36,871 nucleotides of DNA from IMG/VR virus record IMGVR_UViG_3300045988_105062. One strand, given 5' to 3'. Positions 656-28,648 of this stretch are shown here, piece after piece (positions within the stretch are counted from its first letter, which is position 1; the number at the start of each line of letters is the position of its first letter). Source of the stretch: a virus. A program made the translations under genes and the position numbers. A model generated the notes under the pieces. The model had not been told where the DNA came from. It searched no databases and saw only the letters and a list, made by a program, of their open reading frames with translations.

Positions 656-1108
656 GTGGAAGAACAGTACAATATCAAAGAAATATTGATACAGTATGAA
701 GACTTGGTAAAGGAGAGAGAATCATTAAAAGAATCTATATCTCAGATAGAGAAAAGGATAAGTAAGATGGAGCAGGAAGGATATACTGTAATAGATAGTG
801 TATCAGGCGGAAATGGAGGCAAGCAGCATTTCAAGATAGAAGGTTTCCCATATTCGGAATATGATAATCAGATGGCATTATTGATGTTAAGAAAGTCGCA
901 GCAGGAAGATGTTCTTGAAAAGATAGAACAGCAGATAGCACTTGCAGAGCATTACATATACCAGATAAAGAGCAGCACTATGAGGAGGATGATTACGTAC
1001 AGATACATTAACAAATATTCCTGGATAAAAGTTGCACACAGTATGGGAAAGCATTATACTGCAGATGGATGCAGGATGGCAGTTGAAAGATTTTTGAAAG
1101 AAAAATAA
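656..1108 (+). CDS. late-gene transcriptional regulator, RinA/ArpU/sigma-70 region-4-like
   Basis: C-terminal HTH-like MRRMITYRYINKYSWIKVAHSMGKHYTADGCRMAVERFL; last gene before the packaging module; GTG start after AGGTG. Confidence 0.65.
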   Translation: MEEQYNIKEILIQYEDLVKERESLKESISQIEKRISKMEQEGYTVIDSVSGGNGGKQHFKIEGFPYSEYDNQMALLMLRKSQQEDVLEKIEQQIALAEHYIYQIKSSTMRRMITYRYINKYSWIKVAHSMGKHYTADGCRMAVERFLKEK

Positions 1109-1112
1109 AAGT

Positions 1113-1139
1113 CTGTTCGTTTTGTTCGTTCTGTTCGTT
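1113..1139 (+). repeat. three tandem 9-bp repeats YTGTTCGTT
   Basis: CTGTTCGTT TTGTTCGTT CTGTTCGTT, occupying the -35 position of the promoter at 1147-1155. Confidence 0.9.
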
Positions 1140-1146
1140 TTATATG

Positions 1147-1161: not shown

Positions 1162-1314
1162 TGGAACAGATGTAAGGTGCATTGTTTCACAGACATACGC
1201 AAGTCTGAATTCAATAATATCCCCGGTGGTGCCGGCGAGAGCTGGCACCATTACTCCTAAATTGATAATTATCCCCTCTTAAGGCACTGACGAAAGTTGG
1301 TGCCTTATTTTGTT
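1162..1314 (+). ncRNA. putative ~150-nt structured leader or small RNA ending at an intrinsic terminator
   Basis: No ORF. 10-12 bp GC-rich stem 1225-1252 is capped by a GAGA (GNRA) tetraloop; CU-rich tracts CTCCT and CCCCTCTT; terminator at 1281-1314. Confidence 0.4.
1281..1314 (+). terminator. intrinsic terminator
   Basis: AAGGCAC-12 nt loop-GTGCCTT followed by ATTTTGTT. Confidence 0.6.
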
Positions 1315-1341
1315 GAAATAAATATAAAAATGTTTTATTAT
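1313..1341 (+). promoter_or_regulatory. sigma-A type promoter of the AT-rich moron
   Basis: TTGAAA, 17-nt spacer, TATTAT; about 30 nt upstream of the ParA-like start. Confidence 0.5.
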
Positions 1342-1356
1342 ATGATTATTATAATT

Positions 1357-1365
1357 GGGGGGGGG
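1357..1365 (+). repeat. G9 homopolymer serving as, or overlapping, the ribosome-binding site
   Basis: ATTGGGGGGGGGAATGATATG; the only long G run in a very AT-rich block. Confidence 0.9.
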
Positions 1366-1371
1366 AATGAT

Positions 1372-2229
1372 ATGAATAAAAATATAATTTCTTTTTTAAA
1401 TATGAAAGGTGGAGTATGTAAAACTACTTTATGTAAAGAAATTGCGTTACATTTATCTAATAATATGAATAAAAAGGTATTAGTTATAGATATAGATCCT
1501 CAGGCAAACTGTACACAATCTTTTTTTGAGCATTTCAAAGTGATACAAATAAAAGATGATGAAATAATTACAGACATTAATTCATTACCGACAATTCAAA
1601 ATTTGTATAGAACTTCTGGTTCAATGTTAGAAGGTGCAAATACAGAAAAAATTGTATATAAATTAACAGATAATTTGCATTTAATTCCGGGAGAATTAAA
1701 TGTTTACTTTATGGATAGAGAAATAGGATCTGGGGCAGCAGAGCATATATTGTGTAATTTTGTAGAAGATAGTGATTTTAGAAAAAAATATGATTATATA
1801 TTTATAGACTGTCCTCCAACATATTCATTTTATACAATAACAGCGTTACTGACGAGTGATTTTTATTTAGTACCTGTTGTTCCAGATGCATATTCTATGT
1901 TGGGAGTAAGTATGTTGGATAGTGTTGTTGATAGATTAAAGGGAACATATAGAAGAGATTTTGATAGTCATTCATTGGATTGTTTAGGAATAATATTTAC
2001 CAAAATAGATTCAAATCCGTCCAAAGGAATAAAAAGAAATATGAAAAATATTTCAAAAGCATTTAAGGATACAAAGATATTTAATACTGTATTTCCGAAT
2101 TCTCCCAAATTAATTACATCAGATATGTCAAAGTTTATTTCTGATAGACAAGATACAAATTTAATAACATCTTTAGAAGATATTTGCATAGAATTTGATA
2201 AGGAGGTTACTATTAGAAATGAAGAATAA
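1372..2229 (+). CDS. ParA/MinD-family P-loop ATPase (285 aa)
   Basis: Deviant Walker A NMKGGVCKTT, A' box VLVIDIDPQAN, Walker B YDYIFIDCPP. Confidence 0.85.
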   Translation: MNKNIISFLNMKGGVCKTTLCKEIALHLSNNMNKKVLVIDIDPQANCTQSFFEHFKVIQIKDDEIITDINSLPTIQNLYRTSGSMLEGANTEKIVYKLTDNLHLIPGELNVYFMDREIGSGAAEHILCNFVEDSDFRKKYDYIFIDCPPTYSFYTITALLTSDFYLVPVVPDAYSMLGVSMLDSVVDRLKGTYRRDFDSHSLDCLGIIFTKIDSNPSKGIKRNMKNISKAFKDTKIFNTVFPNSPKLITSDMSKFISDRQDTNLITSLEDICIEFDKEVTIRNEE

Positions 2230-2596
2230 GATATATAAAAAAATAATGATAACACAAGGAATAAAAGATATTGATGAATTCAAGATGGAAATGTATTCTA
2301 TTTTAACAAGTATTGTATATGATAGAAATATATATAAACATAATAAGGAATTAGAAGAATTATTTTTAAAATTAAATATTCCATGTAAGCCGTATTTGTT
2401 AAAAAGCAGAAATCAATCAATTATAAAATTTTTAAGTGTAATACATAAATCAACTTATGAAGAGTTAGTTGAACAATTACAGATATTAAAAAAAGTGATG
2501 ATAGAAAGTATGGAAGAAGATAATAAAGTAGAAACAAATGAAGAAAACAAAGAAAGTGATTATGACATATTGGTGAAGAAATATGGAAAAAAATAG
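2219..2596 (+). CDS. hypothetical protein, 125 aa, acidic C-terminus; translationally coupled to the ParA-like gene
   Basis: ATG overlaps the upstream stop by 11 nt; AAGGAGG upstream; no recognisable motif. Confidence 0.65.
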   Translation: MKNKIYKKIMITQGIKDIDEFKMEMYSILTSIVYDRNIYKHNKELEELFLKLNIPCKPYLLKSRNQSIIKFLSVIHKSTYEELVEQLQILKKVMIESMEEDNKVETNEENKESDYDILVKKYGKK

Positions 2597-3254
2597 TCAA
2601 TTAGGCGAATATGAAGAGTTTTTAAAAAAAGTATTTCCTGAATGTCAATATAATAAAGAATATGATTTGTTATATAAAAGAATATGTAGTTTTAATATTT
2701 TTATAGAAATATTAAAAAATTACATAAATGATGAAAAAGTAGAATTTTTTATTTCTAAAATAATATATGGATATAATATGTTATTAATGTATGTACCATT
2801 AAGTGATAGTATGGGAATAACAGCGTGTATGAGATATATTACTGAACAAACACTTAAGTGTTTTTATTCATATATTTTTAAAGATAAATCAATAAAGAAA
2901 ATTAATGAAACATCATACAGAAATATTAAAGAAGATATAAAAAGCGAATATACAGATAAAGATTATTTAAATAGGTTGTATTCTCAATATGCAAAATATT
3001 CTAATGAAGTTCATGATAAGTTGAAATTAGAAAATAAAGAGATAGAATATATATATGATATATTATCAAGAGAAAATACAATGATTGAATACATAAATAA
3101 AGATGTTTATACATTGATGAAAATATTATTTAAGTTTTTAATACATAATTATGAAATTAAATATAAGTCGTTTAATATATCTCAAAGGATAAATTATGAA
3201 AAAATATTTTCAAGTAAATTTCATAAGGAATTTGATGAGTTATTAGGAGGTTAA
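2583..3254 (+). CDS. hypothetical protein, 223 aa, helical and Lys/Tyr/Ile-rich
   Basis: ATG overlaps the upstream gene by 14 nt; no recognisable motif. Confidence 0.7.
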   Translation: MEKNSQLGEYEEFLKKVFPECQYNKEYDLLYKRICSFNIFIEILKNYINDEKVEFFISKIIYGYNMLLMYVPLSDSMGITACMRYITEQTLKCFYSYIFKDKSIKKINETSYRNIKEDIKSEYTDKDYLNRLYSQYAKYSNEVHDKLKLENKEIEYIYDILSRENTMIEYINKDVYTLMKILFKFLIHNYEIKYKSFNISQRINYEKIFSSKFHKEFDELLGG

Positions 3255-3285
3255 AAAAAGGCAACTATATAGTTGCCTTTTTATT
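3255..3285 (+). terminator. intrinsic terminator closing the moron
   Basis: GGCAACTAT/ATAGTTGCC perfect stem followed by TTTTTATTT. Confidence 0.85.
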
Positions 3286-3308
3286 TATGCCAGAAAGGAG
3301 CTGATTGT

Positions 3309-3899
3309 ATGGCATTAACAGATAAACAGAAGCGATTCTGTGAAGAATACCTTATAGACCTTAATGCCACACAGGCAGCTATCAGGGCAGGGTATTCACC
3401 GAAAACAGCAGAACAGACGGCATCAAGACTGTTAAGAAATGTTAAGGTGCAGGAATATATAGCAAAAAGACAAAAAGAGCTATCAAGGAGCACACAGATA
3501 ACCCAGGAAAGAGTTATCAAGGAGCTTGCCCTGATAGCTTTTTCTAATAATGCGGACTATGCACGTGTAGTAGAGAAAAAGATGCAGACAGAAGTTGATG
3601 GAATGCTGGTTGATGTTCTTGGTGAAGATGGCAAGCCTATAATGTATAGGACGGTAGAGCCAGTACTGACAGATGAACTTACAGAAGAACAGAAGAGAGC
3701 ATTGGCAGTTATCAAGAAGGGTAGAGATGGACTGGAAGTGAAATCTTTCGATAAGGTCAGGGCATTGGAACTGCTTGGTAAACATCTGGGAATATTTACT
3801 GAGAAGATAGAGGCTAATGTAAACGATACAACCAGGAGTGAATTACAGGAGCTTCTTGCACAGCGTAAAGCAAGAGGTGAGCCAGATGCTTCTAAGTGA
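3309..3899 (+). CDS. terS: terminase small subunit (P27/Terminase_2 type)
   Basis: MALTDKQKRFCEEYLIDLNATQAAIRAGYSPKTAEQTASRLLRNVKVQEYI; AAAGGAG lies 9 nt upstream. Confidence 0.9.
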   Translation: MALTDKQKRFCEEYLIDLNATQAAIRAGYSPKTAEQTASRLLRNVKVQEYIAKRQKELSRSTQITQERVIKELALIAFSNNADYARVVEKKMQTEVDGMLVDVLGEDGKPIMYRTVEPVLTDELTEEQKRALAVIKKGRDGLEVKSFDKVRALELLGKHLGIFTEKIEANVNDTTRSELQELLAQRKARGEPDASK

Positions 3900-5297: not shown

Positions 5298-6815
5298 GTG
5301 AACATATTTACAAGTATGGCAGAGAAGATAAAAACAGGAATAAGAACGTGGCTGCACATCCAGCCGGCTGTTAATGGATCCATAAGCATACAGGAAACTC
5401 TTGATTACGAGGGAAATGCCATAAAGAACAAGATATGGTACAGAGGTGAGAGTGAAGAATTGTCACAGCTATACAGCCAGATAGATGGTGACAAGACAAG
5501 GTTCTGGTCTGCATCCTGTACAATAGGTATGGAGATAAGAAAGATACACGTAGGTCTCCCTGCTATGTTATGCGATATGCTGGCCAGTATAGTAACAGAT
5601 GATATGAATTTAATAGATGCTGGCAGCAGGCAGACAGAATGGGATAAGATAGCAGAGGAAAATGATTTCATTGAGCTTGTTAAGCAGGCAATAACAGAAA
5701 CACTTTATATCGGTGATGGAGCATTCAAGATATCGTTCGATACGAACCTTAGCAAGTATCCTATATTGGAATTCTACTCTGGTGATAAGACAGAGATTAT
5801 CAAGGACAGGGGAAGAGTTAAGGAGATAGTGTTTAAGACTGTGCATAACGTGCAGAGACAGGAATATGTATTACTTGAACATTATGGCATAGGCTACATA
5901 CATTATGAGCTTACAAGAGGCGGCAGGGAATATGATTTAAGTGTTATACCGGAGCTGGCACATCTTAGTGATGTTACCTGGAATGACAAGTTTATAATGG
6001 CTGTTCCTCTTCTGTTTTATAAGTCAGCCAAGTATAAAGGACGAGGCAAGAGCATATTTGATGCAAAGATAGATAACTTTGATGCGCTGGATGAAGCATG
6101 GTCACAATGGATGGATGCCTTAAGGAGGAATAGAACAAAGGAATATATACCGGAGAATATGTTACCAAGGAATCCCCTGGATGGAAAAGTGCTAAAGCCT
6201 AATGCTTTTGATAATGCCTATATAAAAACAGATGGCAGCATGGCAGAAGGTACAGTTAATAAGATAGAGCTTGTACAGGGCAATATCCCACACGAAAGCT
6301 ATCTTGCAACATATATCACAGCGTTGGATCTTTGTTTACAGGGGATTATGAGCCCATCAACATTAGGCATAGATGTTAAGAAACTGGATAATGCGGATGC
6401 ACAGAGGGAGAAAGAGAAAGCAACGCTTTACAGCAGAGATAACATTGTAGAGCGGCTTCAGAAGGTTCTTCCAAAGCTTGTTACAGCAACATTTAATGCC
6501 ATAGACACGCTTAATAAGACAGCTATTAAGGATATAGATATTGATGTGACATTTGGCGAATATGCTAACCCATCTTTTGAAAGCCAGGTAGAAACAGTCA
6601 GCAAGGCAAAGCAGGGCGGTATTATGAGCATAGAGGCATCTGTTGATGAGCTGTATGGAGATACTAAGGATGACGAATGGAAGCAGGAAGAGATAGCAAG
6701 ACTTAAGGCTGAGCAGGGTATATCTGATATGGAAGAGCCGGCACTTAATATGCAGGCAGATGGCTTTACAGTTAATGGCGCTGATAACAGTTTTACAGGT
6801 TTTGATAACAAGTGA
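5298..6815 (+). CDS. portal protein (start uncertain: 5289, 5298 or 5316)
   Basis: About 505 aa ORF directly after terL with an acidic C-terminus; SPP1-like module order. Confidence 0.8.
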   Translation: MNIFTSMAEKIKTGIRTWLHIQPAVNGSISIQETLDYEGNAIKNKIWYRGESEELSQLYSQIDGDKTRFWSASCTIGMEIRKIHVGLPAMLCDMLASIVTDDMNLIDAGSRQTEWDKIAEENDFIELVKQAITETLYIGDGAFKISFDTNLSKYPILEFYSGDKTEIIKDRGRVKEIVFKTVHNVQRQEYVLLEHYGIGYIHYELTRGGREYDLSVIPELAHLSDVTWNDKFIMAVPLLFYKSAKYKGRGKSIFDAKIDNFDALDEAWSQWMDALRRNRTKEYIPENMLPRNPLDGKVLKPNAFDNAYIKTDGSMAEGTVNKIELVQGNIPHESYLATYITALDLCLQGIMSPSTLGIDVKKLDNADAQREKEKATLYSRDNIVERLQKVLPKLVTATFNAIDTLNKTAIKDIDIDVTFGEYANPSFESQVETVSKAKQGGIMSIEASVDELYGDTKDDEWKQEEIARLKAEQGISDMEEPALNMQADGFTVNGADNSFTGFDNK

Positions 6816-6823
6816 GGTAGCTT

Positions 6824-8422
6824 ATGGCACTTAATACAGAATATGACATAGAGAAAGCCTTTAGAGCCATAGAAGATGAGCTGATTGCTTCTATGATACG
6901 AAATCTTGACAGACACAGAGCAGAAGAAGATGAACTTGGATTCAACTGGGCACAATGGCAGGTAGAACAGCTTAAAGCCTTAGAAAAATATAAAGCAGAT
7001 AACAAGACACGTTTTGCGGGCAGATTCAGTGATATAAACAGTTCAATTGATGCAATGATATTTACAGCAAGGCAGACAGGCGGCACAGAGCAGGAACAGA
7101 AGATATTAAGAGTATTGAAAAAGGGATTAAAAGCATCCAAGGTGTCACAAGGCACTGAGGGTGCTTTTTTCAAGCTTAACACAAGAAAGCTTAATGCCCT
7201 GATTAAAGCTACGAAGTCAGATTTTAACAGGGCGGAAAAAGCAATGCTTAGAATGTCGGAAGATAAATACCGGCAGATAATATTCAATGCTCAGGTGTAT
7301 GCGAATACGGGTGCAGGAACATATGAGAAAGCAGTTGATATGGCGACAAAGGATTTCCTAAAAGCAGGTATCAACTGTATTGAATATGCGAATGGCGCAA
7401 GGCATACTATGAAAGATTATGCTAAGATGGCAATTCAGACAGCCAATAAGCGTGCATATCTAACCGGAGAGGGAGAGATGAGACAGTCCTGGGGAATTAG
7501 TACAGTTATTATGAATAAGCGTGCGAATGCCTGTCCTAAGTGTCTTCCGTTTGTTGGAAAGATTCTTATAGATGATGTGTGGAGTGGCGGTAAGGCATCT
7601 GATGGTCCTTATCCGCTTATGTCATCTGCAATAGCTGCGGGGTTGTACCATCCAAATTGCAAAGACGTACATACAACATACTTCCCTGAGCTGGATGAAG
7701 AGCCAGACAGTAAGTTTACCAAGGAAGAGCTTGAGCAGGTTAAGGAAGATTACAAGCAGGACCAGAAACAGCAATATGCTGGAAGAATGGTTGAGCAGTT
7801 CGATAGGATGTCGAAGTATTCGCTGGATACGGATAATAAGAAGATGTATGAGGTAAGGAAGGAACAGTGGAAGAAAAATGTATCATTTGATAATAGTAAA
7901 TCTGAAAAGCATATTGAGGATTTATGTGATAGTGATATAATTCAATTATCAGATAAAGAATTGCAAGCTGTTATTCAATATAAGAGTTTTGAGTCATATA
8001 TTATAAATGATATGTTAAGAAATGCAAATGATTTATCAAAATTAAAGCTAGAAGATAAACAGCTTATAAATAATTTAGATAAAGCATTGTCAAAAATACC
8101 GAAATATCAAGGCAATTTAATAAGAATGGTCGATTTTACGGATAGATTAGATGAGCAAGATATGATTAATGATTTTGTGAGTGAGTTTGTAGTAGGAAAA
8201 GTAGTAATAATCAGACAGTATTGGAGCACATCAAAAAAAGAAGGATATAATGATTCAGCAAAAATAAAAATTTATATACAAAATTCCAAGAATGGACGAG
8301 ATATAAGTTCTATTGGTTTAAATGAAAATGAAGTGCTATATGAGCGAAATAGTAGATTTAAAGTTGTTTCAAAATTGTTGGTTAAAGATATTTGGAATAT
8401 TCTTCTAGAGGAGGTGGATTAG
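6824..8422 (+). CDS. minor head morphogenesis protein (SPP1 gp7/Mu F-like) fused to a C-terminal ADP-ribosyltransferase domain
   Basis: HPNCKD motif in the N-terminal two-thirds. C-terminal R-S-E triad: LIRMV, WSTSKK (STS at 8225-8233), ENEVL (ExE at 8324-8332). Confidence 0.85.
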   Translation: MALNTEYDIEKAFRAIEDELIASMIRNLDRHRAEEDELGFNWAQWQVEQLKALEKYKADNKTRFAGRFSDINSSIDAMIFTARQTGGTEQEQKILRVLKKGLKASKVSQGTEGAFFKLNTRKLNALIKATKSDFNRAEKAMLRMSEDKYRQIIFNAQVYANTGAGTYEKAVDMATKDFLKAGINCIEYANGARHTMKDYAKMAIQTANKRAYLTGEGEMRQSWGISTVIMNKRANACPKCLPFVGKILIDDVWSGGKASDGPYPLMSSAIAAGLYHPNCKDVHTTYFPELDEEPDSKFTKEELEQVKEDYKQDQKQQYAGRMVEQFDRMSKYSLDTDNKKMYEVRKEQWKKNVSFDNSKSEKHIEDLCDSDIIQLSDKELQAVIQYKSFESYIINDMLRNANDLSKLKLEDKQLINNLDKALSKIPKYQGNLIRMVDFTDRLDEQDMINDFVSEFVVGKVVIIRQYWSTSKKEGYNDSAKIKIYIQNSKNGRDISSIGLNENEVLYERNSRFKVVSKLLVKDIWNILLEEVD

Positions 8423-24368: not shown

Positions 24369-25835
24369 TTATTTTTGCAGGAAGAAGTACACTTCCAATT
24401 TATCATTTTCTTTATCATATACCATATGGTCAACAACACTTCTTATAGCATTAGCCCTTGTAAGAGTATTATTAGAGGTATCTTTTATAATGTCATATAC
24501 AGTTGATATACTCTTAAGCATGGCTGCATTAGAATCATCAGATGCTAAGCTGAAGGCTTCCAACTGTTTTTTAAGTGCTTTACGTTCGTCCTTAATCAGT
24601 TGTTTATTTTCTTTATATTCTTCTATTGTATCAATTCCATCCCGGTATGCTTGCTTTATTCTTGCTTCTTTATCATCAAGTTTAGATAATTTACTAAGAA
24701 GTATATCTCTGTCATCTGTATTAGCTTCGTTTGAAGCTTTTTTTAGTTCGTAATGCAATTCGGCAGTTCCATCAAAAACTCGTTCAAATGCGTTATATAC
24801 AGCCTGTTCAAGGGCAGCAGTTTTTATAAAATGGCTATGCAGACATTTGCCTTTGTTGTAGTTGCCGCATTGGTAACGTGTAGCATTAAGCCCAGCCATA
24901 AGAGAAGCTCCGCAGTCAGAACATTTCACAATTCCACCAAGCCAATGCTTCATATGTCCAGCGGCTCGTGCTTTGTATGGTTTGCTCCTTAAAGCCATAA
25001 GATGTTGTACCAAATCCCAAGTTTCTTTATTAATTATTGCTGGGTGTTTACCCATAACAATAATCCATTCACTAATGTCCTTTATTGTATGATTGTCGTG
25101 ATTTTGTCTATTCCAGCGGACGGCTCCATAATAAAATGGATTACTTAATATATATTCAACAGTACGTCCCTCAAATGCAGCCCCGCGCTTAGTTTTATAT
25201 CCAAGGGCATTAAGTTCCCTGGCAATTTCCAAGTAGCTGTGGCCGGCAATGTAGTCATTGTATATTTTTCTTACAATAACAGCTTCTTCTTCGTATATGT
25301 AAGGAATGCCAGTCTCTTTATTCATTCGGTATCCAAGAGGCAGAGAAGACTGGTAACCACCTCGTAAGGCTTTCTCAGTCATACCTCTTAGAACTTCGCC
25401 AGACAGACGAATAGAATAGTATTCATCCATCCACTCTATTATACGTTCTATTAAGGTACCAAAAGGACCATCAATAAGTGGCTCGGATACACTCACAACA
25501 TCAACACGGTTCTTTTTAAGTAAAGATTTGTAGACAATCGATTCTTCTTGATTACGCGCAAATCGGCTGAATTTCCATACAAGAATAACATCGAATGGGT
25601 GTTCTTTGCTTTTTGCCATTCCTATCATTTTCATAAATTCTGGTCGTTTGTCTGCTTTCTTGCCGGAAATACCATTATCAATGTAAATGTTTTCTGCCAG
25701 AAGTGACATATTATTCTTTTTTGCAAAGTCAATCAAAAGCCGCTTCTGTGCATCTGGTGAAAGTTCTTCCTGTTTATCTGTGGACACACGTATGTAGGCA
25801 CAAGCAGATTTCATATTAAGTATATCCCTAGCCAT
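24369..25835 (-). CDS. int: large serine recombinase (integrase)
   Basis: CAYIRVSTDKQ catalytic Ser motif, resolvase N-domain, recombinase domain, Cys-rich zinc ribbon CSDCG...CGNYNKGKC, C-terminal coiled coil; start MARD after AAAGGA. Confidence 0.92.
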   Translation of the reverse strand: MARDILNMKSACAYIRVSTDKQEELSPDAQKRLLIDFAKKNNMSLLAENIYIDNGISGKKADKRPEFMKMIGMAKSKEHPFDVILVWKFSRFARNQEESIVYKSLLKKNRVDVVSVSEPLIDGPFGTLIERIIEWMDEYYSIRLSGEVLRGMTEKALRGGYQSSLPLGYRMNKETGIPYIYEEEAVIVRKIYNDYIAGHSYLEIARELNALGYKTKRGAAFEGRTVEYILSNPFYYGAVRWNRQNHDNHTIKDISEWIIVMGKHPAIINKETWDLVQHLMALRSKPYKARAAGHMKHWLGGIVKCSDCGASLMAGLNATRYQCGNYNKGKCLHSHFIKTAALEQAVYNAFERVFDGTAELHYELKKASNEANTDDRDILLSKLSKLDDKEARIKQAYRDGIDTIEEYKENKQLIKDERKALKKQLEAFSLASDDSNAAMLKSISTVYDIIKDTSNNTLTRANAIRSVVDHMVYDKENDKLEVYFFLQK

Positions 25836-25865
25836 ATTAATCATCCTTTCTGTAAAATATATGCA

Positions 25866-26205: not shown

Positions 26206-27807
26206 TTATTCGTCTTCATCATCATCAAGAGAGTATGAGTTAGTATAGTTAGAATCAGAAGAAAGAGATTGACGATATTCGCCAGCTACCATTGTTTTGT
26301 TAAATTCTGCCGTTGGTTCTATTTCATCAACTATCTTTTCAAGCTCATCTATAGATATCTTGAAAAATTCCTTACGCATATTAACTTTATTTACACGTCT
26401 ATCATTAAGTATTTCGTGCATCTTATTTTCAAGAGCTACAGCATCTTTAGAGAATATGAAGCTATGTACATCAAATTTAAAAGGAACGCTGGCGTTTCCG
26501 AGCTCATTAATTCTGTCTTGAGGTTCAAGCCTACGTGTCATACCTACTTTAAATACATCTTCACCAAAAGCTCCTAAGTTACTTATTATATAAACAGTAC
26601 CGGCTTTACCATTTTGTAAGTTAGTTATTTCATCCTTTTTAATAATTACTTCACCTAATTGAGATTGAAGTTCAAGGATTCTTGCCTTGAGTTTATCAAT
26701 TTCTGATTCATCAGTAGTATTTAACATAGTATCTTGCAACTTACTAATTTCAGTATTGAACTTTTCTTCTTCCTGTTGAATATGTTTCTTTTCACGTTCA
26801 AGAGCTTTACGTTCTTCAGCTTCCTGTCGCATTTGTTCTTTAAGAGCCATCTGTTCTTGCTTAGCTTGCTCACGTTTAACATAGTAATTATATTCAATTT
26901 TAACAGCATTAATAAAGAGATATTCTAATTCGCCTATGAACTTTGTAAGAGTACCAGCAATAGTCTGATTGCCTTCGCCAGCAATCTTAAGGTATTTAGC
27001 AGAAATATCTTTTACATGTTCGATTGCAGTATCTAGCTTTTCATATTTTAGTGCATATAATACATTCTGTAATTCAGCTCTTAATGCTATTACCATTAGG
27101 TTGTAGATAGCTTTATTAGCTTTGGTTGTATATCTGGCAGAATATTGCTTTAAAAGATTGTCTATAAGCTTTTCATTATCTTTATAAGCTTTTCGCAGAC
27201 TCTTTATGTCCATACAATGTAATTTAAGAATTACTGAAGGAGCAATTTCTTCGGCATCTTTTAAATCACTTGTGCTTAATATGCAACTATTATAAGGGAT
27301 TTCTAAATTTATGAAGTTATCAAATGCATAAGCAAAACTTTTATACAATTCTTTGGAACGTGATATTTTACGCTGCTGGGTTGCAAGAGATTTTTTTAGT
27401 TTATCATCCTGTTGTTGCAATTCATTAATTTCAGTTCTCAATTTATCAATTAATACATTATTACTCTGTATTTCTTCATTGAGAGAATCAAGGTTAGCCT
27501 TTGCTTCGCTTTCAGCAGAAGCAATCTTTGTGGCTGATTCCTGTTCTATTTGTTCAATCTTTTTCTTTGTTTCTATATATTCAGTAACACCTAGCTCATC
27601 ACATGTTTGTTTCATTTCAGAATATTCCTGCGATAGTTGATTGTTCTGATTGAATGTTTGTGTAAATAGTTCTTTTTGTTTCTTATCATTTACAGCTTTT
27701 ATGATAAGAAGAATAATGCCGATTATAGGCGGAATAATAAGAAACCAGCATGCACATAAAAGTGCAATAAACCAAGTGCTTAAGTACCATTTGCTTTTAG
27801 TGTTCAT
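26206..27807 (-). CDS. membrane-anchored coiled-coil protein with a DUF4041-like region and a C-terminal T5orf172/MUG113 (GIY-YIG superfamily) domain, 533 aa
   Basis: N-terminal TM WYLSTWFIALLCACWFLIIPPIIGIILLII. About 350 aa of Glu/Lys/Gln heptad-like sequence. C-terminus GTVYIISNLGAFGEDVFKVGMTRRLEPQDRINELG...ALENKMHEILNDRRVN...KEFFKISIDEL. AGGAGG lies 9 nt upstream of the ATG at 27807. Confidence 0.8.
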   Translation of the reverse strand: MNTKSKWYLSTWFIALLCACWFLIIPPIIGIILLIIKAVNDKKQKELFTQTFNQNNQLSQEYSEMKQTCDELGVTEYIETKKKIEQIEQESATKIASAESEAKANLDSLNEEIQSNNVLIDKLRTEINELQQQDDKLKKSLATQQRKISRSKELYKSFAYAFDNFINLEIPYNSCILSTSDLKDAEEIAPSVILKLHCMDIKSLRKAYKDNEKLIDNLLKQYSARYTTKANKAIYNLMVIALRAELQNVLYALKYEKLDTAIEHVKDISAKYLKIAGEGNQTIAGTLTKFIGELEYLFINAVKIEYNYYVKREQAKQEQMALKEQMRQEAEERKALEREKKHIQQEEEKFNTEISKLQDTMLNTTDESEIDKLKARILELQSQLGEVIIKKDEITNLQNGKAGTVYIISNLGAFGEDVFKVGMTRRLEPQDRINELGNASVPFKFDVHSFIFSKDAVALENKMHEILNDRRVNKVNMRKEFFKISIDELEKIVDEIEPTAEFNKTMVAGEYRQSLSSDSNYTNSYSLDDDEDE

Positions 27808-27823
27808 AATTGTTAGCCTCCTA

Positions 27824-28648
27824 TTATAATAATTTCCAACTGTATCCACAATTTAAGCATTTAACTACACCTTGTTTGCTTGAAAGTCCGCCTATAATTG
27901 CTCCAGTACTTCCAAATGCAGCACCTCCAAGAAGAGCTCTTCCCAAACTTAATTTTTTAGTGGAATAGTTTATGCTGGTACTTCCACATTTAGGACAACA
28001 AGCTATTCCATTAGCTTTGTTTTCTTTTACTTTTTCTTTAATCTGTCCTTTTTTTGTAATTGATGGATTCTTTGTATTCCAAATAGGAGTGCCATTTTTG
28101 GGATGTGGCACATTTCCTATAATTGTATTTATTTTTTCAGTATCATTTTTATCTACAATATAAAATCCGGTATCCTTTTTTCCACAATAAGGGCATTTTT
28201 CAGCTTTTACTAGTAACTTATCACCGCAATTATTACAGATTTTTATTTTATTAGATAAATCATTACCATTGGAATCTGTAATTATATTTTTTTCTAAGAA
28301 TTGATGTACATCTTTTATATCAGAATTAACACCGGTATATAATAGTCCATCATATATTTTTTTGAGTTTTTTATCTGATGCAGACAAAACCCAGAAATTA
28401 TCATCAATAAATTCTATTACAATGTAAGGATTTGCTAAAAATACATTAGTAATTTCCTCGCTTTTATATAAAGATTTTGTATTACCTGTAACGTCGAGGA
28501 GTAATCCTGCGTTATATAGTCCAATACTACAATAGGTTTTTTCAGCAGATGATGTTCCATTTATATATTTTGCAGTAGTAAGAAATGTAAAACTTGAAAA
28601 CCCTCCTTCTTTTTTTATATTTTTGAATTGTTCCTTAGATATATCCAT
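27824..28648 (-). CDS. double zinc-ribbon protein with a C-terminal glycine-zipper segment, 274 aa
   Basis: CNNCGDKLLVKAEKCPYCG, and CCPKCG...GGAAFGSTGAIIGG...CLNCG; start lies 1 nt after the upstream stop. Confidence 0.7.
   Translation of the reverse strand: MDISKEQFKNIKKEGGFSSFTFLTTAKYINGTSSAEKTYCSIGLYNAGLLLDVTGNTKSLYKSEEITNVFLANPYIVIEFIDDNFWVLSASDKKLKKIYDGLLYTGVNSDIKDVHQFLEKNIITDSNGNDLSNKIKICNNCGDKLLVKAEKCPYCGKKDTGFYIVDKNDTEKINTIIGNVPHPKNGTPIWNTKNPSITKKGQIKEKVKENKANGIACCPKCGSTSINYSTKKLSLGRALLGGAAFGSTGAIIGGLSSKQGVVKCLNCGYSWKLL

Follow-up and report, generated by a model that had tools for sequence, protein, structure and literature searches.

A mobile three-gene cassette with a ParA/MinD-type ATPase in a cargo slot before terS of a temperate siphophage, and its candidate role in anti-phage defense

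The virus record IMGVR_UViG_3300045988_105062 of IMG/VR comprises 36,871 nucleotides (nt) of DNA, the whole of which was analyzed and is called the window in the following. Between the genes for a late-type transcriptional regulator and terS, it contains a block at positions 1280-3288 that is a mobile three-gene cargo cassette, or moron, of a temperate Lachnospiraceae-type siphophage. The three genes, called genes 1, 2, and 3 and together the trio, are listed with the other features of the window in Table 1. Gene 1 overlaps with gene 2 by 11 nt, and gene 2 with gene 3 by 14 nt; a preliminary description of this DNA had read them as three coupled open reading frames (ORFs), and the same coordinates and overlaps were recovered here. 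An alignment with homologs favors the ATG at 1372 as the start codon of gene 1 over an upstream TTG at 1297. When the base composition was calculated over segments of 400 nt, the G+C content of the cassette amounted to 0.19-0.29 over positions 1201-3200, vs. 0.34-0.38 upstream and 0.38-0.44 downstream, which bears out the earlier claim of an AT-rich block among neighbors of ~40% G+C. A nucleotide search of the GenBank phages with the cassette matched only in the conserved part of terS. In tblastn searches of the same phages, genes 2 and 3 of the window gave zero matches, and other versions of gene 3 gave zero matches or found only themselves.

Table 1. Location of the cassette and of other features in the window
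Feature	Position	Strand	Description
Gene 1	1372-2229	+	285 amino acids (aa); ParA/MinD-class ATPase with deviant Walker A motif
Gene 2	2219-2596	+	125 aa; small partner, predicted all-helical, charged tail
Gene 3	2583-3254	+	223 aa; predicted all-helical, candidate effector
Terminator-like hairpin with T-run	1280-1311 (arms 1280-1307)	+	Found by terminator scan; left junction of the cargo slot
Sigma-70-type promoter-like site TTGAAA-17-TATTAT	1313-1341	+	10 of 12 positions match
G9 tract	1355-1363	+	Shine-Dalgarno region of gene 1; read from the sequence
Hairpin (14-nt arms) with T-run	3255-3288 (arms 3255-3282)	+	Cassette terminator; right junction
Late-type transcriptional regulator	656-1108		Upstream neighbor, 150 aa; PHROG 36, 7e-14
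Three tandem 9-mers, TGTTCGTT[TC]	1113-1140		Directly after the stop codon of the late regulator
terS			Downstream neighbor of the cassette; Terminase_2, 2e-44
Large serine recombinase	24369-25844	-	Related to SPbeta YokA and TP901-1 integrase
Large ORF adjacent to the serine recombinase	26206-27849	-	

The mobility of the cassette is evident from a comparison of related phages. A search of viral contigs with the late regulator yielded 34 loci (designated by L-numbers). These share 94-100% identity in the regulator and, in cases where the contig includes terS, mostly 78-100% in terS. The site between these two genes contains the trio in the window and in L123, L126, L127, L129, and L138, and nothing in L128 and L131, where it measures 236 nt. 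Alternatively, the site is occupied by an AT-rich module of another kind, of which there are at least five, i.e., a multi-pass membrane protein of ~210 aa that resembles DUF4271 with a score below the cut-off (L124, L134, L144, L149), a 338-aa protein with C-terminal membrane helices (L139), a pair of 327 and 189 aa (L135, L136, L146), a 389-aa protein with small membrane proteins (L132, L133), or a three-gene set of 299, 180, and 198 aa without an assigned family (L145). In L125, the trio has lost the greater part of gene 1 and almost all of gene 2. The cargo modules of L124, L132, L135, L139, and L145 were located at about 5650-7900 in each of these loci; the G+C content of the cargo is 25-28% in every case, and that of the empty site 40%. 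Near-identical phages thus hold the trio, other cargo, or nothing at exactly the same site, in agreement with the earlier proposal that the cassette is a self-contained unit that is exchanged horizontally.

The boundaries of the slot are well defined. On the left, the junction is sharp, and the cargo starts right after the hairpin at 1280-1307, at CTTATTTTGTTG. On the right, it ends just 5' of the ribosome-binding site (RBS) of terS, where the motif TTTTATTnATGCCAGAAAGGAGC is common to the empty site and L135. The right junction TTTTATTnATGCCAGAAAGGAGCTGATTGTATG is likewise common to the empty site and L135, and its core, GAAAGGAGCTGAT, was found again in the other cargo variants. A second phage backbone, L001, is homologous to the window from exactly 1280 to 3796, at 89% identity. 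Hence, the characteristics by which a moron or hotspot is recognized, i.e., replacement polymorphism at a fixed site, a deviant G+C content, and flanking hairpins, are all found at this locus. The slot resembles the defense hotspots of P2 and P4 prophages in its fixed site, here between a late regulator with its terminator and the next operon, and in its interchangeable, AT-rich cargo with its own promoter and terminator, part of which is recognizable as defense candidates. It also has a parallel in phage lambda, where the moron slot after Q and tR' holds stx. It differs from these slots in the phage lineage, in the host phylum, and in its location directly before terS; to our knowledge, this hotspot has not been described previously.

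Within the slot, the cassette appears to form an insulated expression unit, as judged from the hairpins on both sides and from a promoter position that is common to all cargo variants. The hairpin at 1280-1307, just 5' of the promoter, is absent from the preliminary description; it has a calculated RNA folding energy of -17.6 kcal/mol (z = -5.7), and in three sister phages one of its stem pairs is changed from AU to GC by substitutions on both sides. It probably ends the transcript of the late regulator and marks the left junction of the slot. At the other end, the perfect 14-nt inverted repeat at 3255-3282 is followed by a T-run, and the start codon of terS is located 20 nt further on; as RNA, this hairpin reaches -14.9 kcal/mol (z = -5.5), and the cassette terminator was therefore correctly recognized in the preliminary description. 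The promoter reported there at 1313-1341 requires more caution. The site is present, but promoter-like sites number 19 in the window vs. 21.7 expected, and this single match, taken by itself, is not above chance. The comparison of cargo variants, however, supports it: among six variants with the same junction, TTGnnn is found in all six and a recognizable TATnAT 17-18 nt downstream in five, and the promoter sequence of the window also precedes the unrelated cargo of L139. In 32 related loci, some of them on contigs with 100% identical cassette proteins, the tract in front of gene 1 reads G6T or G5T, compared with nine G residues in the window. This variation in length could represent phase-variable translation or a homopolymer sequencing error.

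The region upstream of the slot belongs to the phage rather than to its cargo. The three tandem 9-mers are followed by a -10-like TAATAT sequence at about 1150-1155 (region 1113-1160), and a similar arrangement was observed in L001, where the regulator is only 68% identical. Because the 9-mers are kept in all sister phages, including those with an empty site, and are absent from the trios in other backbones, they are part of the phage backbone and not of the cassette. Together with the TAATAT sequence, they probably constitute the binding site of the regulator and the late promoter, and not a centromere. The ensuing leader (1141-1312) is conserved and structured, with a hairpin at ~1221-1257 of which the central segment is inverted in L139; covariation in this leader is weak, since the sequences are too similar. 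At the empty sites of L128 and L131, the leader terminator abuts the RBS of terS and leaves no room for a promoter. Therefore, late transcription must read through the terminator and through any cargo, which hints at antitermination, as with Q and tR' of lambda.

Gene 1 is an intact ParA/MinD-type ATPase, predicted to be active from its invariant motifs. It matches the Pfam families AAA_31 (1e-36; 127 bits with a cut-off of 27) and CbiA (7e-15; 55.5 bits with a cut-off of 25.4) and PHROG 164, annotated as ParA-like partition protein (1e-46), and its closest solved structure is that of protein δ (delta) of plasmid pSM19035 (2oze, 1.5e-15), followed by Soj. The Walker A motif KGGVCKT, with the signature lysine K12, comprises residues 12-18; the A' box reads DIDPQ and the Walker B motif FIDCPP. 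The residues K12, G13, G14, V15, K17, T18, D40, D42, P43, Q44, and D146 are invariant in nine ParA proteins from trios with 35-54% identity, whereas Cys16 is limited to Lachnospiraceae-type copies and replaced by Gly in the other trio ParAs. Thus, the ATPase motifs noted earlier, with a Cys for the usual Gly, are indeed present and fall in invariant columns except for position 16. Both the motifs and the profile scores above the cut-offs place gene 1 in the ParA/MinD (SIMIBI) class. Its scores against the NCBIfam equivalogs are far under the cut-offs (PrgP, 71 bits vs. 400; ParA_partition, 70.7 bits vs. 180). With delta and Soj, which are type Ib ATPases of Firmicutes, it shares the fold class, the motifs, and the size (285 aa vs. 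284-298 aa), and like these proteins it presumably works as an ATP-dependent dimer switch.

The protein encoded by gene 2 has a match only to PHROG 6264 (1.4e-7), of which the function is unknown, and gave zero matches against Pfam, NCBIfam, and PADLOC. In its family, Y59 and R64 are invariant within the motif K-x-Y-L-x-x-S-R, and the C-terminal tail is charged. An AlphaFold2 model, built on only eight sequences, shows seven helices and no strand, with a predicted local distance difference test score (pLDDT) of 81.6. A Foldseek comparison of this model with the PDB found nothing (best E = 3.4), and no match to a ribbon-helix-helix (RHH), helix-turn-helix (HTH), or ParB fold. Since the model is all-helical and without a match in the PDB, gene 2 is not a recognizable centromere binder of the RHH or ParB type, the kind of partner that the preliminary description had singled out for a check; the small number of sequences behind the model has to be considered here.

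For gene 3, the candidate effector, a word-indexed search gave only seven clusters, and a set of 1.84 billion proteins contained only 99 cluster representatives. Nearly all of these proteins are 210-247 aa long, and the closest variant is present on at least 144 contigs from public metagenomes. The AlphaFold2 model is all-helical with a pLDDT of 91.9. No consistent family emerged from searches of Pfam (with 84 and 49 members), of PDB sequence profiles, and of PADLOC (49 members), NCBIfam had no match either, and Foldseek searches of the PDB and BFVD gave nothing significant. PHROGs 7540 and 22935, neither of which has an assigned function, include 16 members. Among 49 divergent members, R84 and H144 are conserved in 100% and E88 in 95-100%, position 140 is exclusively Ser or Cys, and Lys or Arg predominates at positions 92, 113, 116, and 146. 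This set of residues is enzyme-like and suggests a nucleic-acid-directed or hydrolytic enzyme.

The Foldseek matches of highest probability for gene 3 are HEPN domains (3o10_C, TM score 0.54, and 2hsb, TM score 0.61, target-normalized; E = 2.5-4.3), and faint, sporadic profile matches were obtained with CARF_HEPN (0.006) and HEPN_STY4199 (0.01). Like the HEPN RNase effectors AbiV, Tha, and HepT, gene 3 is all-helical with an invariant Arg on a helix. In contrast to these effectors, its invariant His is located ~60 residues away on another helix, and no HEPN profile matches significantly. Furthermore, only six of the 49 members have His at position 89, where the others have N, Q, S, or Y, and this does not agree with the HEPN motif Rx4-6H. 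An assignment to DUF4145/HEPN, which neither the profiles nor the motif support, is therefore kept as a weak lead only. A RES domain (R-E-S) was considered as well and rejected on account of the residue spacing and of a model that is entirely helical.

Two aberrant copies of the cassette are relevant for gene 3. In L125 (5678-6690; the contig is that of L018), a natural deletion has left the first ~68 residues of ParA, with an out-of-frame fusion to the last part of gene 2, and an intact gene 3. The retention of gene 3 without gene 2 suggests that gene 3 is not a free-standing toxin that is kept in check by gene 2, with the proviso that this variant is represented by a single metagenomic contig and could be an assembly artefact. 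In the chromosome of the type strain Blautia producta DSM 2950 (L013, 5811-6495), gene 3 lacks the first ~40 residues and forms an ORF of 187 aa, in which the match spans residues 65-212 only. ParA and gene 2 are intact in this copy, and the spacer between the regulator and ParA is unusually long (~800 nt). It may be a decaying copy of the cassette.

The three genes are conserved together over large evolutionary distances. For distant relatives of gene 3, the same three-gene order was found in seven of eight look-ups, the eighth contig being too short (1.6 kb) to show the upstream genes. A scan of viral contigs with a ParA alignment resulted in 80 loci, which were then searched with profiles for genes 2 and 3. 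Gene 2 adjoins ParA in every locus with enough sequence, and a profile match to gene 3 was obtained in all loci where ParA is closer than ~40% identity. In the remaining loci, a third ORF of 220-245 aa has kept the R..E and S/C...H skeleton. Altogether, the trio is present in 51 of 51 distinct ParA clusters, with gene 2 followed by a third gene of 185-251 aa, which settles the question of co-conservation raised earlier. Examples of carriers with a name are Lactococcus phage PLg-TB25 and Streptococcus phage Javan1 and, among the hosts, B. producta DSM 2950, a metagenome-assembled genome of Ruminococcus, Paenibacillus, Peribacillus, and Lactococcus petauri. The trio genes are not discussed in the paper on PLg-TB25.

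The genomic settings of the trio vary. It is located directly 5' of terS in the window and in several unrelated backbones, after the genes for XhlA, holin, and amidase near the prophage end in a Bacillus-like genome, between the repressor and integrase genes in Javan1, and next to a tyrosine integrase gene beside the host gene lepA in another locus. In Paenibacillus, it is found in a chromosomal locus without phage genes among its neighbors. Pfam counts over 185 neighboring ORFs revealed terminases, integrases, lysins, holins, and HTH regulators. These settings are classical prophage accessory slots, with the addition of the chromosomal locus in Paenibacillus.

What travels in the slot besides the trio is informative about its possible function. 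The 327- and 189-aa pair matches the PADLOC entries PDC-M67A (1.5e-16) and PDC-M67B (1.7e-7) in the correct order, with a weak match to RexA (6.7e-5), and the 389-aa protein matches PDC-S02 (8e-14). In other modules of the slot, a soluble protein is combined with small membrane proteins. Several of these modules are uncharacterized candidates in their own right. The RexAB-like PDC-M67A/B pair is similar to the trio in that it occupies the same slot in sister phages, with the same composition and the same promoter junction. It differs from the trio in consisting of two genes, for a sensor and a membrane protein, and its proteins are unrelated to those of the trio.

The presence of defense-candidate cargo in the same slot, the location of the trio in prophage slots, its conservation, and its organization as an insulated unit all count in favor of a defensive role. 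Judged from this context, the cassette is, on balance, probably an anti-phage defense or exclusion system that is expressed from the prophage. More tentative, and rather doubtful in its particulars, is the mechanism by which it might act, in which the immune switch is a ParA/MinD ATPase of the partition type that was co-opted for this purpose and, together with the adaptor encoded by gene 2, licenses gene 3, a new family of helical effectors. Gene 1 would dimerize on ATP and act as the switch, probably on the nucleoid, and gene 2, with its invariant Arg, would couple the ATPase to gene 3 and/or stimulate ATP hydrolysis. The effector, gene 3, would possess a polar site formed by R84, E88, and K/R92 on one helix and S/C140, H144, and K146 on another, and it would be active only when licensed by ParA and gene 2 during the infection by another phage. 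The control of a separate effector, toxic or a nuclease, by a nucleotide-driven switch within a compact mobile operon is also seen in PrrC/RloC, PARIS AriAB, Septu PtuAB, Gabija, and Menshen NsnABC. Menshen is a trio as well, and signal transfer from its ATPase to its effector was proposed (PMC12065111). However, the ATPases of these systems are of the ABC/OLD type, whereas the one discussed here is of the ParA/MinD (SIMIBI) type. None of these systems matches the sequences of the trio in PADLOC, and genes 2 and 3 are outside the described families.

Several observations weigh against a role in defense. The best-known role of ParA-type ATPases is the positioning of cargo. The comparison of the trio with PADLOC-DB v2.0.0 (2023) revealed no validated or candidate system, although a system named later could be missed in this release. 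Gene 1 gave a P-loop-only match there (PDC-M28B, 7e-4, residues 5-42). As anticipated in the preliminary description, no named defense family includes any of the three proteins, and genes 2 and 3 are without a match to a curated family. Because PADLOC holds no model for the trio, the assignment to defense rests on context, and the PDC entries on which the argument from the hotspot draws are candidates themselves. Neither a ParA-based defense system nor this trio was found in the searchable literature, a scope outside which subscription journals fall. Finally, the effector role of gene 3 is based on its conserved residues; its likeness to HEPN domains is weak (E = 2.5-4.3), and the canonical Rx4-6H is lacking in 43 of the 49 members.

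Among the other explanations, a module that acts on host physiology or as an addiction system survives best, although its probability is low. The ParA protein and its partners would then alter replication, division, or sporulation of the host, or kill cells that have lost the prophage, to the advantage of prophage maintenance and not as a barrier to other phages. The accessory position and the lysogen-type promoter suit any function in lysogenic conversion. In Firmicutes, DnaA and sporulation are under the control of Soj/ParA proteins, the parA-shi-parB module of ICEclc arrests division of its host, and many hosts of the trio are spore-formers (Lachnospiraceae, Paenibacillus, Peribacillus). 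However, the trio is also found in prophages of Lactococcus and Streptococcus, which do not sporulate, and the alternative cargoes at the slot resemble exclusion or defense modules and not physiology genes. Moreover, L125, in which gene 3 is kept without gene 2 on a single contig, speaks against a simple toxin-antitoxin pair.

Ordinary partition is unlikely, somewhat more so than an effect on the host. According to this explanation, ParA would work with a new adaptor (gene 2) and a third component to segregate or position an excised or episomal phage genome by means of a nearby centromere; the preliminary description had put forward a plasmid-style partition cassette with the 9-mers as the centromere. 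It would agree with the relationship of gene 1, which is nearest to true partition ATPases (delta, Soj, and PHROG 164), with a small gene right after parA in the style of type Ib systems, and with the tandem repeats upstream. However, the repeats belong to the backbone, and no array travels with the trio: an 8-mer is present at least three times in only nine of 100 trio flanks, with no motif in common and no enrichment of repeats, and the 9-mers were therefore rejected as a centromere. The trio is prophage-borne and not plasmid-borne. The prophages that carry it are integrated and possess integrases, their contigs measure at least 200-480 kb, and tblastn searches of 72,556 plasmids (PLSDB) with two versions of gene 3 gave zero matches. 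Rep or ParB families are not among the 25 commonest families of the 185 neighboring ORFs, so a location next to plasmid replication genes, for which the preliminary description had asked to look, was not found. The trio also differs from the delta and Soj systems in its partner, for which the all-helical model of gene 2 gives no RHH or HTH match typical of centromere binders, and in its conserved third gene with enzyme-like invariant residues.

Least probable of all is a role in the lytic cycle of the phage itself or in counter-defense, in which the trio would position replication or packaging factories near terS or neutralize host immunity: it is located directly upstream of terS in several backbones and late transcripts probably read through it, as the empty-site terminator abuts the terS RBS, but near-identical phages do without it, elsewhere it lies beside integrase and repressor genes or after lysis genes, far from the packaging genes, and the Paenibacillus copy even has a chromosomal location where the neighbors include no phage genes.

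If the trio indeed protects its host, the ParA/MinD class and two undescribed protein families would join the repertoire of bacterial immunity. Known ATPase-based defense mostly uses ABC/OLD, AAA+, STAND, or helicase ATPases; the trio would be the first defense system based on an ATPase of the ParA/MinD class, spread across prophage hotspots in Firmicutes, and it would imply that DNA-positioning machinery can be rewired for conflict. Considering the number of metagenomic contigs with the closest variant of gene 3, at least 144, the cassette may shape the dynamics between phages and hosts in the gut. The swappable slot before terS in abundant Lachnospiraceae-type phages of the human gut is, in addition, a source of further candidates.

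A few other features of the window deserve mention. A scan of the whole window against Rfam gave no family match. Inside terS, at 3377-3539, three copies of AGCTATCA, one of them inverted, are present within 160 nt, and a fourfold 8-mer was observed at the equivalent place in L004. These repeats may be related to a pac site, although their number is not significant genome-wide, as four copies were reached in 21 of 100 shuffles. Elsewhere, the window encodes a large serine recombinase, and hence the phage integrates; a second large ORF on the same strand is adjacent to the recombinase gene.

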